From contig BDTR01000042.1 in the NCBI GenBank assembly GCA_002897775.1, positions 61,280 through 125,279 on the forward strand: DNA of 64,000 nucleotides, given 5' to 3'. Source of the stretch: a bacterium BMS3Bbin08 (GTDB taxonomy: Bacteria; Nitrospirota; Thermodesulfovibrionia; UBA6902; BMS3Bbin08). Below, piece after piece: positions 25,735 to 31,396 of this stretch. The notes under the pieces were generated by a model, which saw only the letters and a program-made list of their open reading frames with translations, was not told the DNA's origin and searched no databases. Every line of letters begins with the position of its first letter. Position 1 is the first letter of the stretch. A program made the position numbers and the translations under genes.

Positions 25735-26055
25735 TTACTGATCAACATCATCTTTTTTTAACTGCTCCAGATAATCCTCCCATTCGATCGGAAGAAGGTT
25801 TTTTTTCCTGTTGTTGCACTCCTTGCAGGAAGGCACGACATTGTTCTTTGTTGACCTGCCTCCCCTTATAAGCGGCACAACATGGTCCATGGTCAGGTCC
25901 CTGGGCAGTACTTCCCTTTTGCAGTAATAACACTTTCCTTTGGCGCGTTTCTGCTTCCACCACTGCGTTTTCCTGAGGTCCCGCGCCCTGTTCTTTTCCC
26001 TGCTGATCTGCTGATCATCAACAGCCGGCACAAATCGATCCATTCTCTTCCTCAT
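25735..26055 (-). CDS. Stand-alone HNH endonuclease
   Basis: CYYCKREV...DHVVPLIRGG...NNVVPSCKECNNRK = classic HNH with two CxxC pairs. Confidence 0.75.
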   Translation of the reverse strand: MRKRMDRFVPAVDDQQISREKNRARDLRKTQWWKQKRAKGKCYYCKREVLPRDLTMDHVVPLIRGGRSTKNNVVPSCKECNNRKKNLLPIEWEDYLEQLKKDDVDQ

Positions 26056-26078
26056 AGCAGATATATATTACTCCTCCC

Positions 26079-26109
26079 CCATCTATCGAGGTTGAACCTC
26101 GATAGATGG
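26079..26109. repeat. REP palindrome copy 1 (CATCTATCGAGGTTGAACCTCGATAGATG)
   Basis: Near-perfect 29-31 bp palindrome with TTGAA centre, immediately 3' of the RAYT gene. Confidence 0.85.
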
Positions 26110-26112
26110 GCC

Positions 26113-26853
26113 TTAATCAATAACCACATCCTGCATCAGCTCTTTATTCTGACTAAAAAACCTTTCTTTTAAAATACTTACAGCATCTTTCTTGTATTGC
26201 TTCTCTCCAGCAAACATATCAAGGAGATACTCCCTGTGGGTCACTGAAGGAAAATTAGCCTTTCCGATATAATCAGGAAAGCTGCTCCACCGATAGTCCT
26301 CCAAAGACTTTATTTTCCCCCGCCAATCTATCGAGGTTGAACCTCGATAGATGAGCTCCAGGGGGTTGAGATGGATATAATGGGGCAGATACTCAAAATG
26401 CTCCTGACTGATTATTAGTACCCCTTTAAATCTTCCCTGAAAAAGCCCGCCAACCCGCTTATATTTCTGATTGAAATACATGGTGTAACCAGTTCCTAGT
26501 TTCTGCATAAATCTTACAATCCCGTCTCTTGCCTTTTGTCTGATCAGCAAATGGAAATGGTTCGGCATAAGTGTAAAAACCAGGATTTCTACTAAGCGCT
26601 TCCTCGGCGGTCTTTCCTTTTTCAGAGCGCGGGTCGCGCGGAACTCAACATTCATACTGCGAGGATTAAAAAAATATCCGAAATTAGTAACAGGATTTTC
26701 ATCATTAAACTCATACAGGTTTTGTATAAATCGAAAATAATCATCGTCATCCATGAAAATCTTTCTTTTTTCAACTCCCCTGTTAAAGAGATGATAGACG
26801 TAATCATTTACAAATTGAGGTTTTCGCATTGCTTTAAATCTTACCACAGTCAT
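26113..26853 (-). CDS. IS200-like Y1 (HUH) transposase of the REP-associated tyrosine transposase (RAYT) type
   Basis: HUH motif MPNHFHLLI; catalytic Tyr region GTGYTMYFNQKYKRVGGLFQGRFK; flanked by palindromic REPs; start codon lies inside a REP. Confidence 0.8.
   Translation of the reverse strand: MTVVRFKAMRKPQFVNDYVYHLFNRGVEKRKIFMDDDDYFRFIQNLYEFNDENPVTNFGYFFNPRSMNVEFRATRALKKERPPRKRLVEILVFTLMPNHFHLLIRQKARDGIVRFMQKLGTGYTMYFNQKYKRVGGLFQGRFKGVLIISQEHFEYLPHYIHLNPLELIYRGSTSIDWRGKIKSLEDYRWSSFPDYIGKANFPSVTHREYLLDMFAGEKQYKKDAVSILKERFFSQNKELMQDVVID
26325..26353. repeat. REP palindrome copy 2, located in-frame inside the RAYT coding sequence
   Basis: Same palindrome (TTGAA centre) encodes LIYRGSTSIDWR within the transposase ORF. 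Confidence 0.8.
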
Positions 26854-26955: not shown

Positions 26956-27291
26956 TTGAGCGTGGAACGAAGGCAGCAGGATAGAAAGGTCCTAAGTTTA
27001 AAAGCAGAGCTTGTCTCAGGTAAACGCCGCTACTCCTGCTTTATAAAGAATTTAACCGCGGCAGGCGCGTATATTGAGACCGTTCCTTCATCAGTGCCAA
27101 TGGAGCTTTCTCCCCAGTCAAAGGTGGAACTGACATTTCAGACCTCCGCTGGAAAGGTACTGAACCTTCCGGGTGTAGTGAAGTGGTCAAGCGCTGACAG
27201 TAAATCAGTCAGCCGCTGCACAAACTGCCTTGGCATTGAGATCCTTGTACAGTCCTCAGGACTCAAAGAGTTCCTGAAGACCCTTCCGTAA
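26956..27291 (+). CDS. Stand-alone PilZ-domain (c-di-GMP binding) protein
   Basis: RRQQDRKV (RxxxR) and NLTAAGAYIE (D/NxSxxG) motifs. Confidence 0.6.
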   Translation: MSVERRQQDRKVLSLKAELVSGKRRYSCFIKNLTAAGAYIETVPSSVPMELSPQSKVELTFQTSAGKVLNLPGVVKWSSADSKSVSRCTNCLGIEILVQSSGLKEFLKTLP

Positions 27292-27434: not shown

Positions 27435-28094
27435 TTAATCCGGCCATATCTGGGATCGGGTATAATCAACGGCTATTTCCGATTTCCCCTCAACGAGAAA
27501 ACCCACTCTCTTGCCAAAAAGGGATATATCCGAAACTCCATCGACATAATAATTGTTTATGTAAAAACGTATCTTACTGCCCAGTTTTTCCATCTTAAGA
27601 GTATTAAAGGAATCTTTCTGGAAAACCATTCTCCTTATCTTTCCGCCGGACAGCTCCTCTGAAATACCCTTTTGATACTTCTTAATCGAATAGGTCTCAT
27701 CTCCTATGATCTGAAACACATAACTATTGCTGGCATCACTGGCGCCCATCACAAATCCATAAGAGTGTTTACCTGAAGCCTTTACTGTTTTGATAGAAGT
27801 CTCTATTACGAACTCTCTGCCAAGTGGGAAATCCTGATAATACAGTATGAAGAGTTCACCTACCTCGCTTTTGTTCTCGATATAATACTTCCCGTTTTCT
27901 ATTCGCGCAGAAGCCATGGTTGTATTGAATATTTCCCAGTTATTGGCATTATTATCGAATTGTTCTTCGGTGCGCATGAACTTTTCTTCCTGAGGTCCGG
28001 AAGCTGCTTTTTCACTTGGAGATTCCGCATAAACTAATTGAATGTTTGAAACAAAAGTCGCAATCGCTAATAGAATAATAAATATATTTTTCAT
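27435..28094 (-). CDS. Secreted beta-rich domain protein, paralog of the C-terminal domain of the downstream PilZ/J-domain protein
   Basis: Signal peptide MKNIFIILLAIATFVSNIQLVYA; about 190-aa domain about 65% identical to residues about 540-734 of ORF 28257-30461; DNA-level similarity too. Confidence 0.5.
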   Translation of the reverse strand: MKNIFIILLAIATFVSNIQLVYAESPSEKAASGPQEEKFMRTEEQFDNNANNWEIFNTTMASARIENGKYYIENKSEVGELFILYYQDFPLGREFVIETSIKTVKASGKHSYGFVMGASDASNSYVFQIIGDETYSIKKYQKGISEELSGGKIRRMVFQKDSFNTLKMEKLGSKIRFYINNYYVDGVSDISLFGKRVGFLVEGKSEIAVDYTRSQIWPD

Positions 28095-28256
28095 AGCTGC
28101 TCCTTTCAGTACCAAAAAACTCTTAATTTCCCGAATACCATATTCGTCCAAATTCTATCTCAGGCATTCATGCCATGGGGTCAGAATGTCAGGACTTAAC
28201 CCAAATGTCAATAGTCAAGCCTGCCTACCGGCAGGCAGGTCTGACCCTGTTTTGTT

Positions 28257-30461
28257 CTATTTAGACCACATTTGCGTACGGGTATAATCAACAGCTACTT
28301 CCGATTTCCCCTCAACGATAAAACCCATTCTTTTGCCAAGAGGGGATAAATCCGAAACTTCACCGAGATAATTATCGTTTAAGTAAAAGCGCATCGTAGT
28401 ACCCTGTTTTTCCAACTTAAGAGTATTGAAGGAATTTTTCTGGAAAACCATGTCCTTTATCTTTCCGCTGGCCAGTTCCTGTGGAACGCCTTTGTAATAC
28501 CTCTTGATAAAATATAACCCATTTGAGCTGATCTGAAACGTATAATTATTGCCGGCATCTTTAGCGCCCATCACATATCCATAAGAGTGGTTGCCAGAAG
28601 CCCTCACTGTTTTCATAGCAACCTCTACTATGAACTTCCTGTCAAGAGGAAAATCATAAGCATTCAGCGTGACGTATTTGCCTCTCTCGCTTTTGTTCTC
28701 GATATAATACTTCCCGTTTTCTATCCGTGCAGAAGCCATGGTTGTATTGAATGTCTCCCAAGTCTTATCCTCATTATTATCGAATTGAGTCTTATATAGC
28801 ATGAACATTTCGCTCGGAGACTTGGAAGTTGGTTTTTCAGGTTTAAGGCTAGCGAGAAGTTCTTTAGCAGCCTCTTCCTCGGCAAGCTTTGCAGCCTTTT
28901 TCCTGGCAGCCTCTTCCTCGGCAAGCTTTGCAGCCTTTTCTTTGGCAGCCTCTTCCTCAGCAAGCTTTGCAGCCTTTTCTTTAGCAGCCTCTTCCTCGGC
29001 AAGCTTTGCAGCCTTTTCTTTGGCAGCCTCTTCCTCGGCAAGCTTTGCAGCCTTTTCTTTGGCAGCCTCTTCCTCGGCAAGCTTTGCAGCCTTTTCTTTG
29101 GCAGCCTCTTCTATCTCAACAGCCTCAGGTAAAAGTGTCCTGTCATATTCAGCCTTCCTGCCCGGATCAGACAGGTGTTCATGCGCCTCTGTAATATATG
29201 AGAATATTGCGGTCAGTTTCCCCTTCAGGTCGTCCTGGTCGTCAGACGGCAGGGCAAAGTGCCTGTCCGGGTGGAACTCCTTTGATTTGCTGTAGTATGC
29301 CTTGCTGATCTCTTCAGCAGACGCGTTTTTTTCAGTGCCGAGTATACCGTAATATCCTATGGACCACAGCTTTTTAAGTATGTCTTCCACTTTATTCAGG
29401 AACTCAGGCGTGATCTCTTCAGCCGGTTCTTTTATGATCTCTTCAACGTCTTCGATCTTGAGCTCCGCAGGCGCTCTTTCTTCTTTCCTGACAGCGATCA
29501 TCCCTATGCTGAGAAGGGCGCAGATGGTTTTGAGGGTATCGGGTTCAGGCAAAAGTGAAAGCGACAACACGGTTTTTAATGAACGTTTGCCATCTATACA
29601 GGAAAGGATCGCCTTGTCAGATCCATCAAGTTTGACATCCTGAAAGATGTTCATCGGGCTGGGCGAAAGATCAAGCACTGCCGTCAGAGGCGGGATTACC
29701 TTTTTTATGTGAAGGATATTATTAACGTTTTTGATACCGTTGCATATAATATTTGCGGCACTGATCCTGAGAGTTATCAAATCGTCTGAAGAAAGAGAGC
29801 CTTCATGGAACCTGAACTTGCCGGTTTCCATGGCAAAAAGACTGAGTATGATCTCCTCTATCTGATGCTGTACCGCGACAAAGACCTCTTTTGGTTTTAG
29901 GCATCCGAGCTCTACAAGGACCTTGCCCAGCTTGCTCCCGCTTTCTTCAGATAAACCGCGCGCCTTGTCAAATTCTTCCTGGCTGATCCTTTTTTGCCTT
30001 ACAAGAAGTTCTCCAAACCCATCCTCTTTGTAATTGGACGAGGCAAATATCATGTCCCCGTTCCTTATGAAGACCTCCTTGATTACCGAGCCGCTCGCAA
30101 CCCTGAGAACCCCTGTTTTTGTGCTCCTCTGCAGGCCGATCAGCACATCTGCCAGTGCAAAGCTCTTTAAAGAGCCCTGAAGGCTGTCCAGTCTTTTGAA
30201 CCCCACCCTGAGTTCATCGTCTGTTTTGTTTACCCATGCGACCTCGCCCCTAAACTGTATCTCAGGGTCAAAGACCTTTACATCCGCCTGTGTGCCGACA
30301 GTAAGCTTCGGGGCATTCTCAAAAACCGCGCCAAGCCCGTCCGAATAGTCAAGTACTCTGCCTCTATAGGTCTCTGAGCCTACCTTTACCTCACACTCAG
30401 ACCGGCTTTCATATCTTTTAAAATGTCTTCTGTCCTCATCGCTCATAATTAAATTATACAA
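28257..30461 (-). CDS. Multidomain PilZ - DUF4388 - J-domain (DnaJ) protein with EEAAKEKAAKLAE x7 coiled-coil repeats and C-terminal beta-domain
   Basis: N-terminal PilZ (RRHFKR...DYSDGLG), DUF4388 (SLKSFALADVLIGLQRSTKTGVLRV), J-domain with HPD (YYGILG...EFHPDRH), seven 13-aa repeats, C-terminal jellyroll-like domain. Confidence 0.7.
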   Translation of the reverse strand: MYNLIMSDEDRRHFKRYESRSECEVKVGSETYRGRVLDYSDGLGAVFENAPKLTVGTQADVKVFDPEIQFRGEVAWVNKTDDELRVGFKRLDSLQGSLKSFALADVLIGLQRSTKTGVLRVASGSVIKEVFIRNGDMIFASSNYKEDGFGELLVRQKRISQEEFDKARGLSEESGSKLGKVLVELGCLKPKEVFVAVQHQIEEIILSLFAMETGKFRFHEGSLSSDDLITLRISAANIICNGIKNVNNILHIKKVIPPLTAVLDLSPSPMNIFQDVKLDGSDKAILSCIDGKRSLKTVLSLSLLPEPDTLKTICALLSIGMIAVRKEERAPAELKIEDVEEIIKEPAEEITPEFLNKVEDILKKLWSIGYYGILGTEKNASAEEISKAYYSKSKEFHPDRHFALPSDDQDDLKGKLTAIFSYITEAHEHLSDPGRKAEYDRTLLPEAVEIEEAAKEKAAKLAEEEAAKEKAAKLAEEEAAKEKAAKLAEEEAAKEKAAKLAEEEAAKEKAAKLAEEEAARKKAAKLAEEEAAKELLASLKPEKPTSKSPSEMFMLYKTQFDNNEDKTWETFNTTMASARIENGKYYIENKSERGKYVTLNAYDFPLDRKFIVEVAMKTVRASGNHSYGYVMGAKDAGNNYTFQISSNGLYFIKRYYKGVPQELASGKIKDMVFQKNSFNTLKLEKQGTTMRFYLNDNYLGEVSDLSPLGKRMGFIVEGKSEVAVDYTRTQMWSK
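28858..29112. repeat. Seven near-perfect 39-bp tandem repeats (coding EEAAKEKAAKLAE)
   Basis: GCAGCCTCTTCCTCGGCAAGCTTTGCAGCCTTTTCTTTG repeated head-to-tail on the plus strand. Confidence 0.85.
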
Positions 30462-30577: not shown

Positions 30578-31396
30578 ATGGACAAACATGGGATTAAATA
30601 TAAATCCGTTAAAGGGAAAACCTACTCCCTGTACGGTGAAACTCATGAAATATCAGGATATTACCGTCTCATTAAAGGCATAACAGATTTATTTCTTAAG
30701 AAATGCCCTGACGAAAAGAAACTGCTTGCCCAGATCCAGAACGCGGGCAGCAACAGGTCCTTCATAAAAAAGCTTTCAAGAAAATATGTCGATAAACCGC
30801 TGGTTTCCTTTATAAAAAAGACCCTCTCGGAAAACCTGTCACTCTATACCACAGGCGTTAAAAGGCATTTACAGACCCTGCCCCTCTCACAGAGATTCGA
30901 CCCGGTCATTCGTACAAAAGAGGCACAGTACCACCTGTACATGACCGAGATCGAACTGATAAACAGGATATATAAGCATGTATTTACGAGCAGCAAATAT
31001 AAGTTCGCCCTTATTGCCCACTGCCTGCGTGATTTCAGGCCTGACTGCCGGGCTGTTGCCGGTGATATTGAATCCATCTGCAGGGGATGCACTAAAGAGT
31101 GTTTTGTGAACCTTGGAAGCCTTCTGTTGAAAAAATATGATATCCACCCCCATATTTCTGTTTCAATGGAACTTGAAAAACTTTTTAAGAAGATCAAGGC
31201 CGGACATCACAGCGTCGGAGCCCTGGGCATTGCGTGCGTGCCCGAGCTTGCCCAGGGAATGAGACTATGCATTAAACTGGGGATCCCGCCTGTCGGTATC
31301 CCGCTTGACGCTAACCGCTGCTCCAGGTGGATGAAACAGTGCCGGGAAAGCTCGTTCAATCTTGAGGAGCTTGAGGAGCTTATAAAGGATCAGTAA
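30578..31396 (+). CDS. Hypothetical protein (Cys-containing, possibly DUF116-like)
   Basis: 272 aa, CRGCTKEC and GIACVPELAQG blocks; no confident family. Confidence 0.3.
   Translation: MDKHGIKYKSVKGKTYSLYGETHEISGYYRLIKGITDLFLKKCPDEKKLLAQIQNAGSNRSFIKKLSRKYVDKPLVSFIKKTLSENLSLYTTGVKRHLQTLPLSQRFDPVIRTKEAQYHLYMTEIELINRIYKHVFTSSKYKFALIAHCLRDFRPDCRAVAGDIESICRGCTKECFVNLGSLLLKKYDIHPHISVSMELEKLFKKIKAGHHSVGALGIACVPELAQGMRLCIKLGIPPVGIPLDANRCSRWMKQCRESSFNLEELEELIKDQ

Follow-up and report, generated by a model that had tools for sequence, protein, structure and literature searches.

The locus described here raises the question of how one and the same beta-rich domain can be fused to a cytoplasmic J-domain protein and, in the next gene, follow a signal peptide. 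It lies in a window of 64,000 nucleotides (nt) from contig BDTR01000042.1 (assembly GCA_002897775.1) of bacterium BMS3Bbin08, a member of the Thermodesulfovibrionia (Nitrospirota). A large open reading frame (ORF) of 734 amino acids (aa) combines a PilZ domain, a DUF4388 domain, a J-domain and a tandem repeat with the C-terminal beta domain. It is followed on the same strand, after a gap of 162 nt, by the gene of a 219-aa protein that carries a second copy of the beta domain. The first-pass annotation of this DNA regarded the pair as a topological contradiction. Our analysis indicates that the window contig most likely merges two copies of one repeat, i.e. that a short-read assembly collapse removed 307 codons from the large gene. 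Set against a second assembly of the organism, the ORF of 734 aa is probably truncated. The real protein would be a bitopic inner-membrane protein of about 1036 aa. The coordinates of all features are given in Table 1.

Evidence for a collapse comes from another assembly of the window's organism. An exact-sequence look-up of the 219-aa protein found, among other assemblies of the locus, L001, a 61.5-kb contig named cov_47 (ENA ERZ1742237) whose two flanks match those of the window locus with 99.8-99.9% identity. Where the window encodes 734 aa, L001:2728-5838 encodes 1036 aa with identical N- and C-termini. In L001, the J-domain is followed by a first array of the repeat unit EEAAKEKAAKLAE, which ends in an RKK unit, and by about 170 residues of Ala/Lys/Glu-rich helix. 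Next come ...EEDRIKKRR-LYIPVGITIAVVLFFALFFTF-KNSG..., a linker some 60 residues long, a second array of EEAAKEKAAKLAE, ...EEAAKELLASLKP and the beta domain. The arrays are 97-99% identical to each other in DNA and are separated by about 680 bp of unique sequence encoding a transmembrane (TM) helix, so that one array lies on its cytoplasmic and the other on its periplasmic side. Between array 1 and the end of array 2, L001 has 921 nt that the window lacks, in frame, and the unique middle part is absent from the entire window.

A unit-by-unit comparison located the junction. Up to and including the RKK unit, which in L001 is the unit just before array 1 diverges, the window tracks array 1 but is one unit shorter. 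The next unit in the window is already the last one of array 2. Of the seven repeats reported as perfect at first pass, five are perfect, one is a variant (EEAARKKAAKLAE) and one is partial. With about 235-270 nt, each array is presumably longer than a typical short read. Other assemblies break at the same place. At least five further contigs of the window species terminate within the arrays: P0010 (98% identical, NCBI) stops inside array 1, and L002-L005 begin inside array 2. L012 has a gap of 100 N at the array region. Past the RKK unit, three assemblies give three different continuations. The 729-aa product of the window was not on record in a large assembly collection searched by exact-product look-up. 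In the nearest relative, L093, both Ala/Lys/Glu-rich stretches are made of non-identical repeats, and thus the arrays appear to have been homogenised or expanded recently in the window species. Two long ORFs in other frames, at 28721-29080 (-) and 28801-29295 (+), arise from the tandem repeat and are not genes; PRKRLPKKRLQS or SSSASFAAF abounds in their products.

The deleted segment determines the topology of the protein. Taken as assembled, the window ORF has no strongly hydrophobic segment (maximum 19-residue Kyte-Doolittle mean 1.41) and no bitopic arrangement with the N-terminus inside and the C-terminus outside. This arrangement was found in the L001 version (KKRR-LYIPVGITIAVVLFFALFFTF-KNSG), in L093 and in P0011-P0014. 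The latter four, P0011, P0012, P0013 and P0014 (855-998 aa), are all the full-length orthologues with the beta domain, and each has one strongly hydrophobic 19-mer between the HPD motif of the J-domain and the beta domain. The nearest organism apart from that of the window (86% identity in the beta domain) carries the conserved TM segment ...KKRRLYIPVGITIAVVLFFALFFIFRNSG... (L093; also L012). In L093 a single unbroken frame covers the cytoplasmic repeats, the TM helix, the linker, the periplasmic repeats and the beta domain, in this order. A homology search with the TM-containing middle segment gave no matches and was uninformative, Ala/Lys/Glu-rich words having almost certainly swamped the candidate selection. 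It even missed P0001, which contains the TM region; a DNA-level scan then found L093. The helix is preceded by KKRR and followed by one Lys. As the positive charges sit before the helix, the J-domain side should be cytoplasmic. Because the TM helix precedes the fused copy, both copies of the beta domain would be extracytoplasmic and there is no topological paradox. The supposed contradiction dissolves, since an intervening TM helix is present in L001 and in every full-length orthologue with the domain. In L012:600-1790, the PATAN region (...SICALLSIGMII; PATAN is another name for DUF4388) passes directly into Ala/Lys/Glu repeats without a J-domain before the gap, which reflects either a real loss or a second assembly error.

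The two beta domains are related in protein and in DNA, as noted at first pass, with an identity slightly below the estimated 65%. The last 184-190 residues of the large ORF are 62% identical to the small ORF over 191 aa (E 7e-82), and the nucleotide identity of the two copies is 78.7%. The signal peptide assigned to the small protein also holds. Its ATG at 28094 is preceded by an AAGGAG ribosome-binding site, the N-terminus is of the classic Sec type (MKNIFIILLAIATFVSNIQLVYA, then ES), and a signal peptide is present in all orthologues (P0003-P0009). No Pfam or NCBIfam model reached its threshold for the beta domain. In a relaxed search, nearly the full model of PF06439 (DUF1080, 3-keto-disaccharide hydrolase) was aligned with 15.4 bits against a cut-off of 26.8. 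Two of nine family members matched it at E <= 1 (best 8e-6), and some relatives of the domain weakly match PF06439 or Laminin_G_3. The model of the domain superposes on the two-sheet sandwich of the concanavalin A (ConA)-like lectin/glucanase fold, which is shared by CBM66, galectins, legume lectins and DUF1080. Sequence identity to CBM66, a carbohydrate-binding module (CBM) family, and to DUF1080 is 12-17%, with a score under the Pfam gathering threshold. The guess by eye of a LamG/DUF1080-like jellyroll was right about the fold; a use on both sides of the membrane is not supported.

The wider occurrence of the domain agrees with an extracytoplasmic location. When 1.84 billion cluster representatives were searched with a profile, 2728 relatives were obtained at E <= 1e-3. 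In the relatives that were inspected, apparent fragments aside, the domain is preceded by a signal-peptide-like N-terminus or by a single TM helix. Relatives of the former type often contain tandem copies (up to five) together with a caspase domain (Peptidase_C14). Among the TM-type relatives, dozens follow the plan PilZ, TM, domain, and some have PATAN-TM or TPR-TM in front. PilZ-TM-ConA-like proteins with the TM helix near residue 200 are, among others, P0060, P0062, P0067, P0074, P0075 and P0077-P0082; the names of the cluster members carried no taxonomic information on proteins of this plan. An N-terminal PilZ domain, one TM helix and a C-terminal ConA-like domain apparently constitute a widespread, undescribed architecture, and a plan this common might be of interest for catalogues of effectors of cyclic di-GMP (c-di-GMP). 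From these contexts, the beta domain appears to behave as an extracytoplasmic binding module and may have an enzymatic role.

The duplication that produced the two copies was initially taken to be recent. A neighbour-joining tree unites the secreted copies of several organisms, and places the fused copy of the window with the fused copies of the nearest relatives, P0001 and P0002. Since secreted and fused copies form separate groups across species, the duplication is not recent. The two window copies differ by 0.36 synonymous (dS) and 0.23 nonsynonymous (dN) substitutions per site. Codons 21-40 of the domain (NTTMASARIENGKYYIENKS) are 97% identical in nucleotides between the copies (28692-28751 and 27873-27932), far above the overall value, which may represent a small gene-conversion tract or a constraint at the codon level. 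Another arrangement was seen in a more distant relative, L009:1388-8788 (GCA_006243175.1), where two PilZ-PATAN-DnaJ-TM-beta-domain genes (859 and 985 aa) enclose the gene of a PAS protein. A small secreted paralogue follows this fused pair, so that three beta domains are encoded within 7.4 kb. Further downstream are genes for PMT_2 and GT2 glycosyltransferases and for a VTT/DedA protein.

The cytoplasmic domains of the large protein are well defined. The PilZ, DUF4388 and J-domain calls of the first-pass annotation were all confirmed by a hidden Markov model search, with scores above the Pfam gathering cut-offs. DUF4388 has been renamed PatA_N in newer Pfam releases and is the PATAN domain of the literature. 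The probable true start of the ORF is the ATG at 30446 (MSDEDRR). An AlphaFold2 model of residues 6-445 contains a confident PilZ barrel, the PATAN domain with a four-helix insert, and the J-domain. The predicted local distance difference test (pLDDT) values are 80-89 across PilZ residues 17-85, which adopt the beta-barrel fold, and 80-90 in the PATAN domain, within which the four helices lie at residues 144-204. Foldseek matched the PilZ part to the BcsA PilZ domain, VCA0042, MapZ and PA0012, recovering c-di-GMP-bound PilZ structures, and the J-domain to many J-domains. The RxxxR motif of the PilZ domain is RHFKR (aa 12-16), and a match to RxxxR is found near the N-terminus of nearly all scanned family members. 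The second motif, DYSDGLG (aa 38-44), is a variant of (D/N)xSxxG. According to a motif comparison, the window clade (DYSDG[LI]G) has Gly at +4 and +6, not at +5, and remoter family members keep the canonical DYSLGG or DYSADG. Binding of c-di-GMP via the PilZ domain is plausible on the basis of these motifs.

J-domains with an HPD motif stimulate the ATPase of Hsp70, and here the HPD is at aa 397-399 (29265-29273). The G/F (Gly/Phe-rich) region, the zinc-finger and the C-terminal substrate-binding domains of canonical class A/B proteins (DnaJ, CbpA) were not found with NCBIfam equivalog models. TIGR02349 scored 41 bits against a cut-off of 377, and as it aligns with the J-domain only, the name 'CbpA' given by the Joint Genome Institute to some homologues is an over-annotation. 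Hydrophobic residues 300-325 (TLKTICALLSIGMIAV) were considered as a membrane helix and rejected; their hydropathy is below threshold, and they belong to a conserved helical region upstream of the J-domain.

The insert in the PATAN domain resembles MshEN, a c-di-GMP-binding module whose motif consists of two 24-residue half-sites and a 5-residue spacer (PMC5013675). A profile of the PATAN segment built from 17 family members matches PilF from T. thermophilus (6f8l, E 2e-17), MshE from V. cholerae (5htl, E 5e-6) and PilB (E 1.6e-5). The score of the window insert with NCBIfam NF053729 is 31.6 bits, under the cut-off of 38. The spacing of 24+5+24 residues is exact. Half-site 2 (KLGKVLVELGCLKPKEVFVAVQHQ) comes close to the canonical motif. 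Half-site 1 (GFGELLVRQKRI...) is degenerate: in its motif 1 (GFGELLVRQKRISQEEFDKARGLS), the Arg, the final Gln and the Gly conserved at position 10 are missing. Several relatives, e.g. P0015 and P0032, keep RLGELLLKEGKI. From the motif pattern, the MshEN-like insert possibly binds c-di-GMP as well.

The core of these three domains is not rare. A scan of one genome per species revealed at least 100 loci encoding the PilZ-PATAN-DnaJ core, and the 80 loci listed were used to compare C-termini, HPD motifs and neighbourhoods. Nearly all of these 80 are in metagenome-assembled genomes that bear the label Nitrospirae, Nitrospirota or Thermodesulfovibrionia, and one genome can have as many as three paralogues. 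The HPD is present in the extracted ORF at 77 of the 80 loci. Soluble proteins of about 560 aa are encoded at 66 of the 80 loci, TPR-tailed where Pfam hits were seen. A TM helix follows the J-domain at 11 loci, and the beta domain occurs at two, at one of them (L014) on a separate overlapping ORF. Other C-termini are TM plus SPOR, TM plus a short tail, and soluble TPR; the TM member P0032, for instance, ends in a SPOR domain. Sequence comparison thus suggests that the core is a Thermodesulfovibrionia-specific expansion with variable C-termini. Public names are limited to 'DUF4388 domain-containing', 'DnaJ domain-containing' or 'CbpA'. In the literature searched we found no experimental study of the PilZ-PATAN-DnaJ architecture, in agreement with the initial impression that it is not a described family, and a PilZ review preprint makes no mention of DnaJ or PATAN fusions.

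These data lead us to propose the following model. The cytoplasmic part of the full-length protein would comprise PilZ, PATAN with its MshEN-type helical insert, the J-domain and a long charged helix. Beyond the TM helix, a second charged helical spacer would carry the ConA-like, lectin/CBM-type beta sandwich into the periplasm. The PilZ domain, and possibly the MshEN-like insert, would bind c-di-GMP, and the J-domain would recruit DnaK and stimulate it at a membrane site. By binding an envelope glycan, the lectin-like domain would position or inform the protein. In the family as a whole, the core might act as a c-di-GMP-responsive class-C J-protein whose location or target is set by the variable C-terminus (TPR, TM plus SPOR, or TM plus lectin-like). 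The downstream 219-aa gene encodes an older signal-peptide paralogue of the beta sandwich; with both copies in the periplasm, the free paralogue would bind the ligand of the fused domain as a competitor or partner. We infer that the full-length protein functions as a c-di-GMP-responsive, envelope-anchored Hsp70 co-chaperone.

Several points weigh against this picture. The collapse was judged from assembled contigs, which leaves room for a real deletion allele in the sampled population. Owing to a C/T difference in the RKK unit, the exactly identical stretch shared with L001 at the junction is only about 19 nt long, and hence a collapse requires strain variation or a small k-mer. The repeat counts of L001 itself may be inexact. 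As to function, the AlphaFold2 model of the beta domain is of moderate confidence only (pLDDT 71). The first MshEN half-site has GFG instead of RLG and a Lys at the conserved Gly, and the departure of the second PilZ motif from the consensus weakens the case for binding of c-di-GMP. Finally, the neighbourhoods of the 80 loci contain no conserved operon partners that point to a pathway.

The window sequence might instead be a genuine allele, in which homologous recombination between the direct arrays (about 250 bp each) deleted the TM region and left a soluble cytoplasmic PilZ-PATAN-J protein that retains the lectin-like domain; in a variant of this explanation, the arrays could be a reversible or one-way topology switch. 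A deletion exactly in frame between near-identical direct repeats fits well with a substrate for RecA-type recombination or slippage, and the RKK unit of the window is one base off that of L001, a hint that the two contigs stem from different strains and not from one set of reads. However, since the period is 39 nt, any collapse of the arrays is in frame and an intact frame is no argument for biology. Moreover, the product is missing from the assembly collection, the TM helix is kept in all full-length orthologues with the domain, and many assemblies fail at exactly the array region. In addition, every inspected relative has the domain behind a signal-peptide-like N-terminus or a TM helix. We regard a genuine allele as unlikely. 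Quite improbable is the more specific notion that the arrays serve as a recombination switch turning an envelope-spanning, lectin-tipped J-protein into a soluble form, with the window representing the deleted allele from a mixed population. The original proposal, in which a ligand-binding jellyroll serves by design inside the cell as part of the fusion and outside it as the small exported protein, takes the helix-free window ORF at face value. It faces the same objections from the assembly collection, the orthologues and the assembly failures, and as no inspected relative other than apparent fragments lacks a preceding signal-peptide-like N-terminus or TM helix, it is hardly credible. A further alternative affects the role of the domain alone and would leave the collapse and the bitopic protein as they are. 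Here, the periplasmic domain would be a DUF1080/3-keto-disaccharide-hydrolase-type enzyme or a glycan lyase or hydrolase that couples c-di-GMP to periplasmic glycan processing, which we consider somewhat unlikely. Beyond this locus, in-frame tandem repeats in contigs of metagenome-assembled genomes can silently delete a membrane helix and thereby invert the inferred biology.

The bitopic protein envisaged here has partial counterparts in known systems. DjlA from E. coli is a membrane-anchored class-C J-protein linked to the regulation of an envelope polysaccharide (capsule) via DnaK. Like DjlA, the full-length protein has a cytoplasmic J-domain with an HPD on a single inner-membrane helix, lacks a G/F region and a zinc-finger, and would draw its specificity from the non-J parts. 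In DjlA, however, the anchor is N-terminal, there is no periplasmic domain, PilZ or PATAN, and no sequence relationship exists outside the J-domain. In the protein described here, the anchor comes after the J-domain and connects it to a large lectin-like domain in the periplasm. A direct fusion of a PilZ c-di-GMP receptor domain to the Hsp70 machinery is also found in CsdK1 and CsdK2 from Myxococcus xanthus, which are soluble PilZ-DnaK chaperones (PMC10313047). There, PilZ resides on DnaK itself, whereas here it is part of a J-domain co-chaperone that in addition contains PATAN, a TM helix and a periplasmic domain. The two-repeat helical insert in the PATAN domain recalls PatA-type PATAN regulators, and its family profile, with the spacing of 24+5+24 residues, matches the MshEN domains of PilB, MshE and PilF (bioRxiv 10.1101/2021.06.11.447907; PMC5013675). 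Unlike these regulators and ATPases, the protein has neither a receiver domain nor an ATPase, and no pil genes are adjacent.

Alg44-like receptors consist of a cytoplasmic PilZ, a TM helix and a periplasmic domain with a role in polysaccharide (architecture in bioRxiv 10.1101/814665), a plan followed by the present protein and by the dozens of beta-domain relatives mentioned above. In contrast to Alg44, which has an HlyD-like periplasmic part and is encoded in the alginate operon, the present protein has a ConA-like sandwich, no adjacent polysaccharide synthase and the additional J-domain and PATAN. In Nostoc, a DnaK1/DnaJ3 system ties the pilus motor to polysaccharide secretion (PMC9239167). 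Apart from shared domains, DjlA, the Nostoc DnaK1/DnaJ3 system, the PilZ-DnaK fusions and Alg44 are not homologues of the protein. New is the combination of known domains, two kinds of c-di-GMP receptor module and a J-domain, in an unstudied lineage-specific family. If the proposed mechanism is true, it would provide a second route from c-di-GMP to Hsp70 after the PilZ-DnaK fusions of Myxococcus, this time at the cell envelope. The underlying gene should be of moderate interest to c-di-GMP and chaperone specialists.

Table 1. Features of the locus; positions refer to the window unless L001 is named, and aa numbers to the protein encoded by the respective ORF.
Feature	Position	Strand	Remarks
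Large ORF as assembled	28257..30461	(-)	734 aa
PilZ domain, aa 10-89	30195..30434	(-)	Pfam PF07238, 40.2 bits (cut-off 22.5)
PATAN (DUF4388/PatA_N) domain, aa 95-246	29724..30179	(-)	Pfam PF14332, 75.9 bits (cut-off 25)
Helical PATAN insert, aa 148-200	29862..30020	(-)	Homologous to the 53-residue MshEN c-di-GMP-binding module (24+5+24)
J-domain, aa 370-440	29142..29354	(-)	Pfam PF00226, 53.3 bits (cut-off 27.8)
39-bp tandem repeat encoding EEAAKEKAAKLAE	28860..29111	(-)	Tandem Repeats Finder, 6.5 copies, 94% matches
Array 1 and array 2 of L001	L001:4063-4360; L001:4984-5235		Window 28860-29111 very probably their fusion
Probable collapse junction	28839..28916	(-)	RKK unit (28878-28916) abuts terminal unit of array 2 (28839-28877)
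ConA-like (lectin/CBM-like) beta-sandwich, aa 551-734	28260..28811	(-)	Predicted to be periplasmic in the full-length protein
Secreted paralogue, 219 aa	27435..28094	(-)	Signal peptide aa 1-23 (28026-28094); beta domain 27438-27989
Stand-alone PilZ gene	26956..27291	(+)	RQQDR and NLTAAG motifs; adjacency not conserved in relatives

The surroundings of the gene pair had been taken as the frame of a c-di-GMP-controlled module. Of this frame, the stand-alone PilZ gene is real, and the module with the PAS kinase and the sigma-54 regulator is not supported. A conserved operon including these genes was considered and rejected, the neighbourhood not being kept next to relatives. Promoters and terminators predicted near the two genes did not outnumber those in shuffled sequence. 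Among the 80 loci, the only recurrent neighbours are a secreted SPOR+TPR protein (11 loci, e.g. L073:3869-4999) and RodZ (5 loci, e.g. L036:5153-5914), the others being housekeeping genes. Together with the SPOR fusion in P0032, these neighbours are a soft hint at a link to peptidoglycan or cell division. Divergent from the large gene, a DUF116 gene (window 30578-31396, +) occupies the same position in L001 and is not found beside relatives. On the other side of the pair, the region that separates the stand-alone PilZ gene from a methyltransferase gene contains a homologue of IS200-like Y1 transposases (246 aa, with a partial match to Y1_Tnp; window 25735-26853, -) beside a small HNH endonuclease gene, and may be a mobile or REP (repetitive extragenic palindromic)-associated element.

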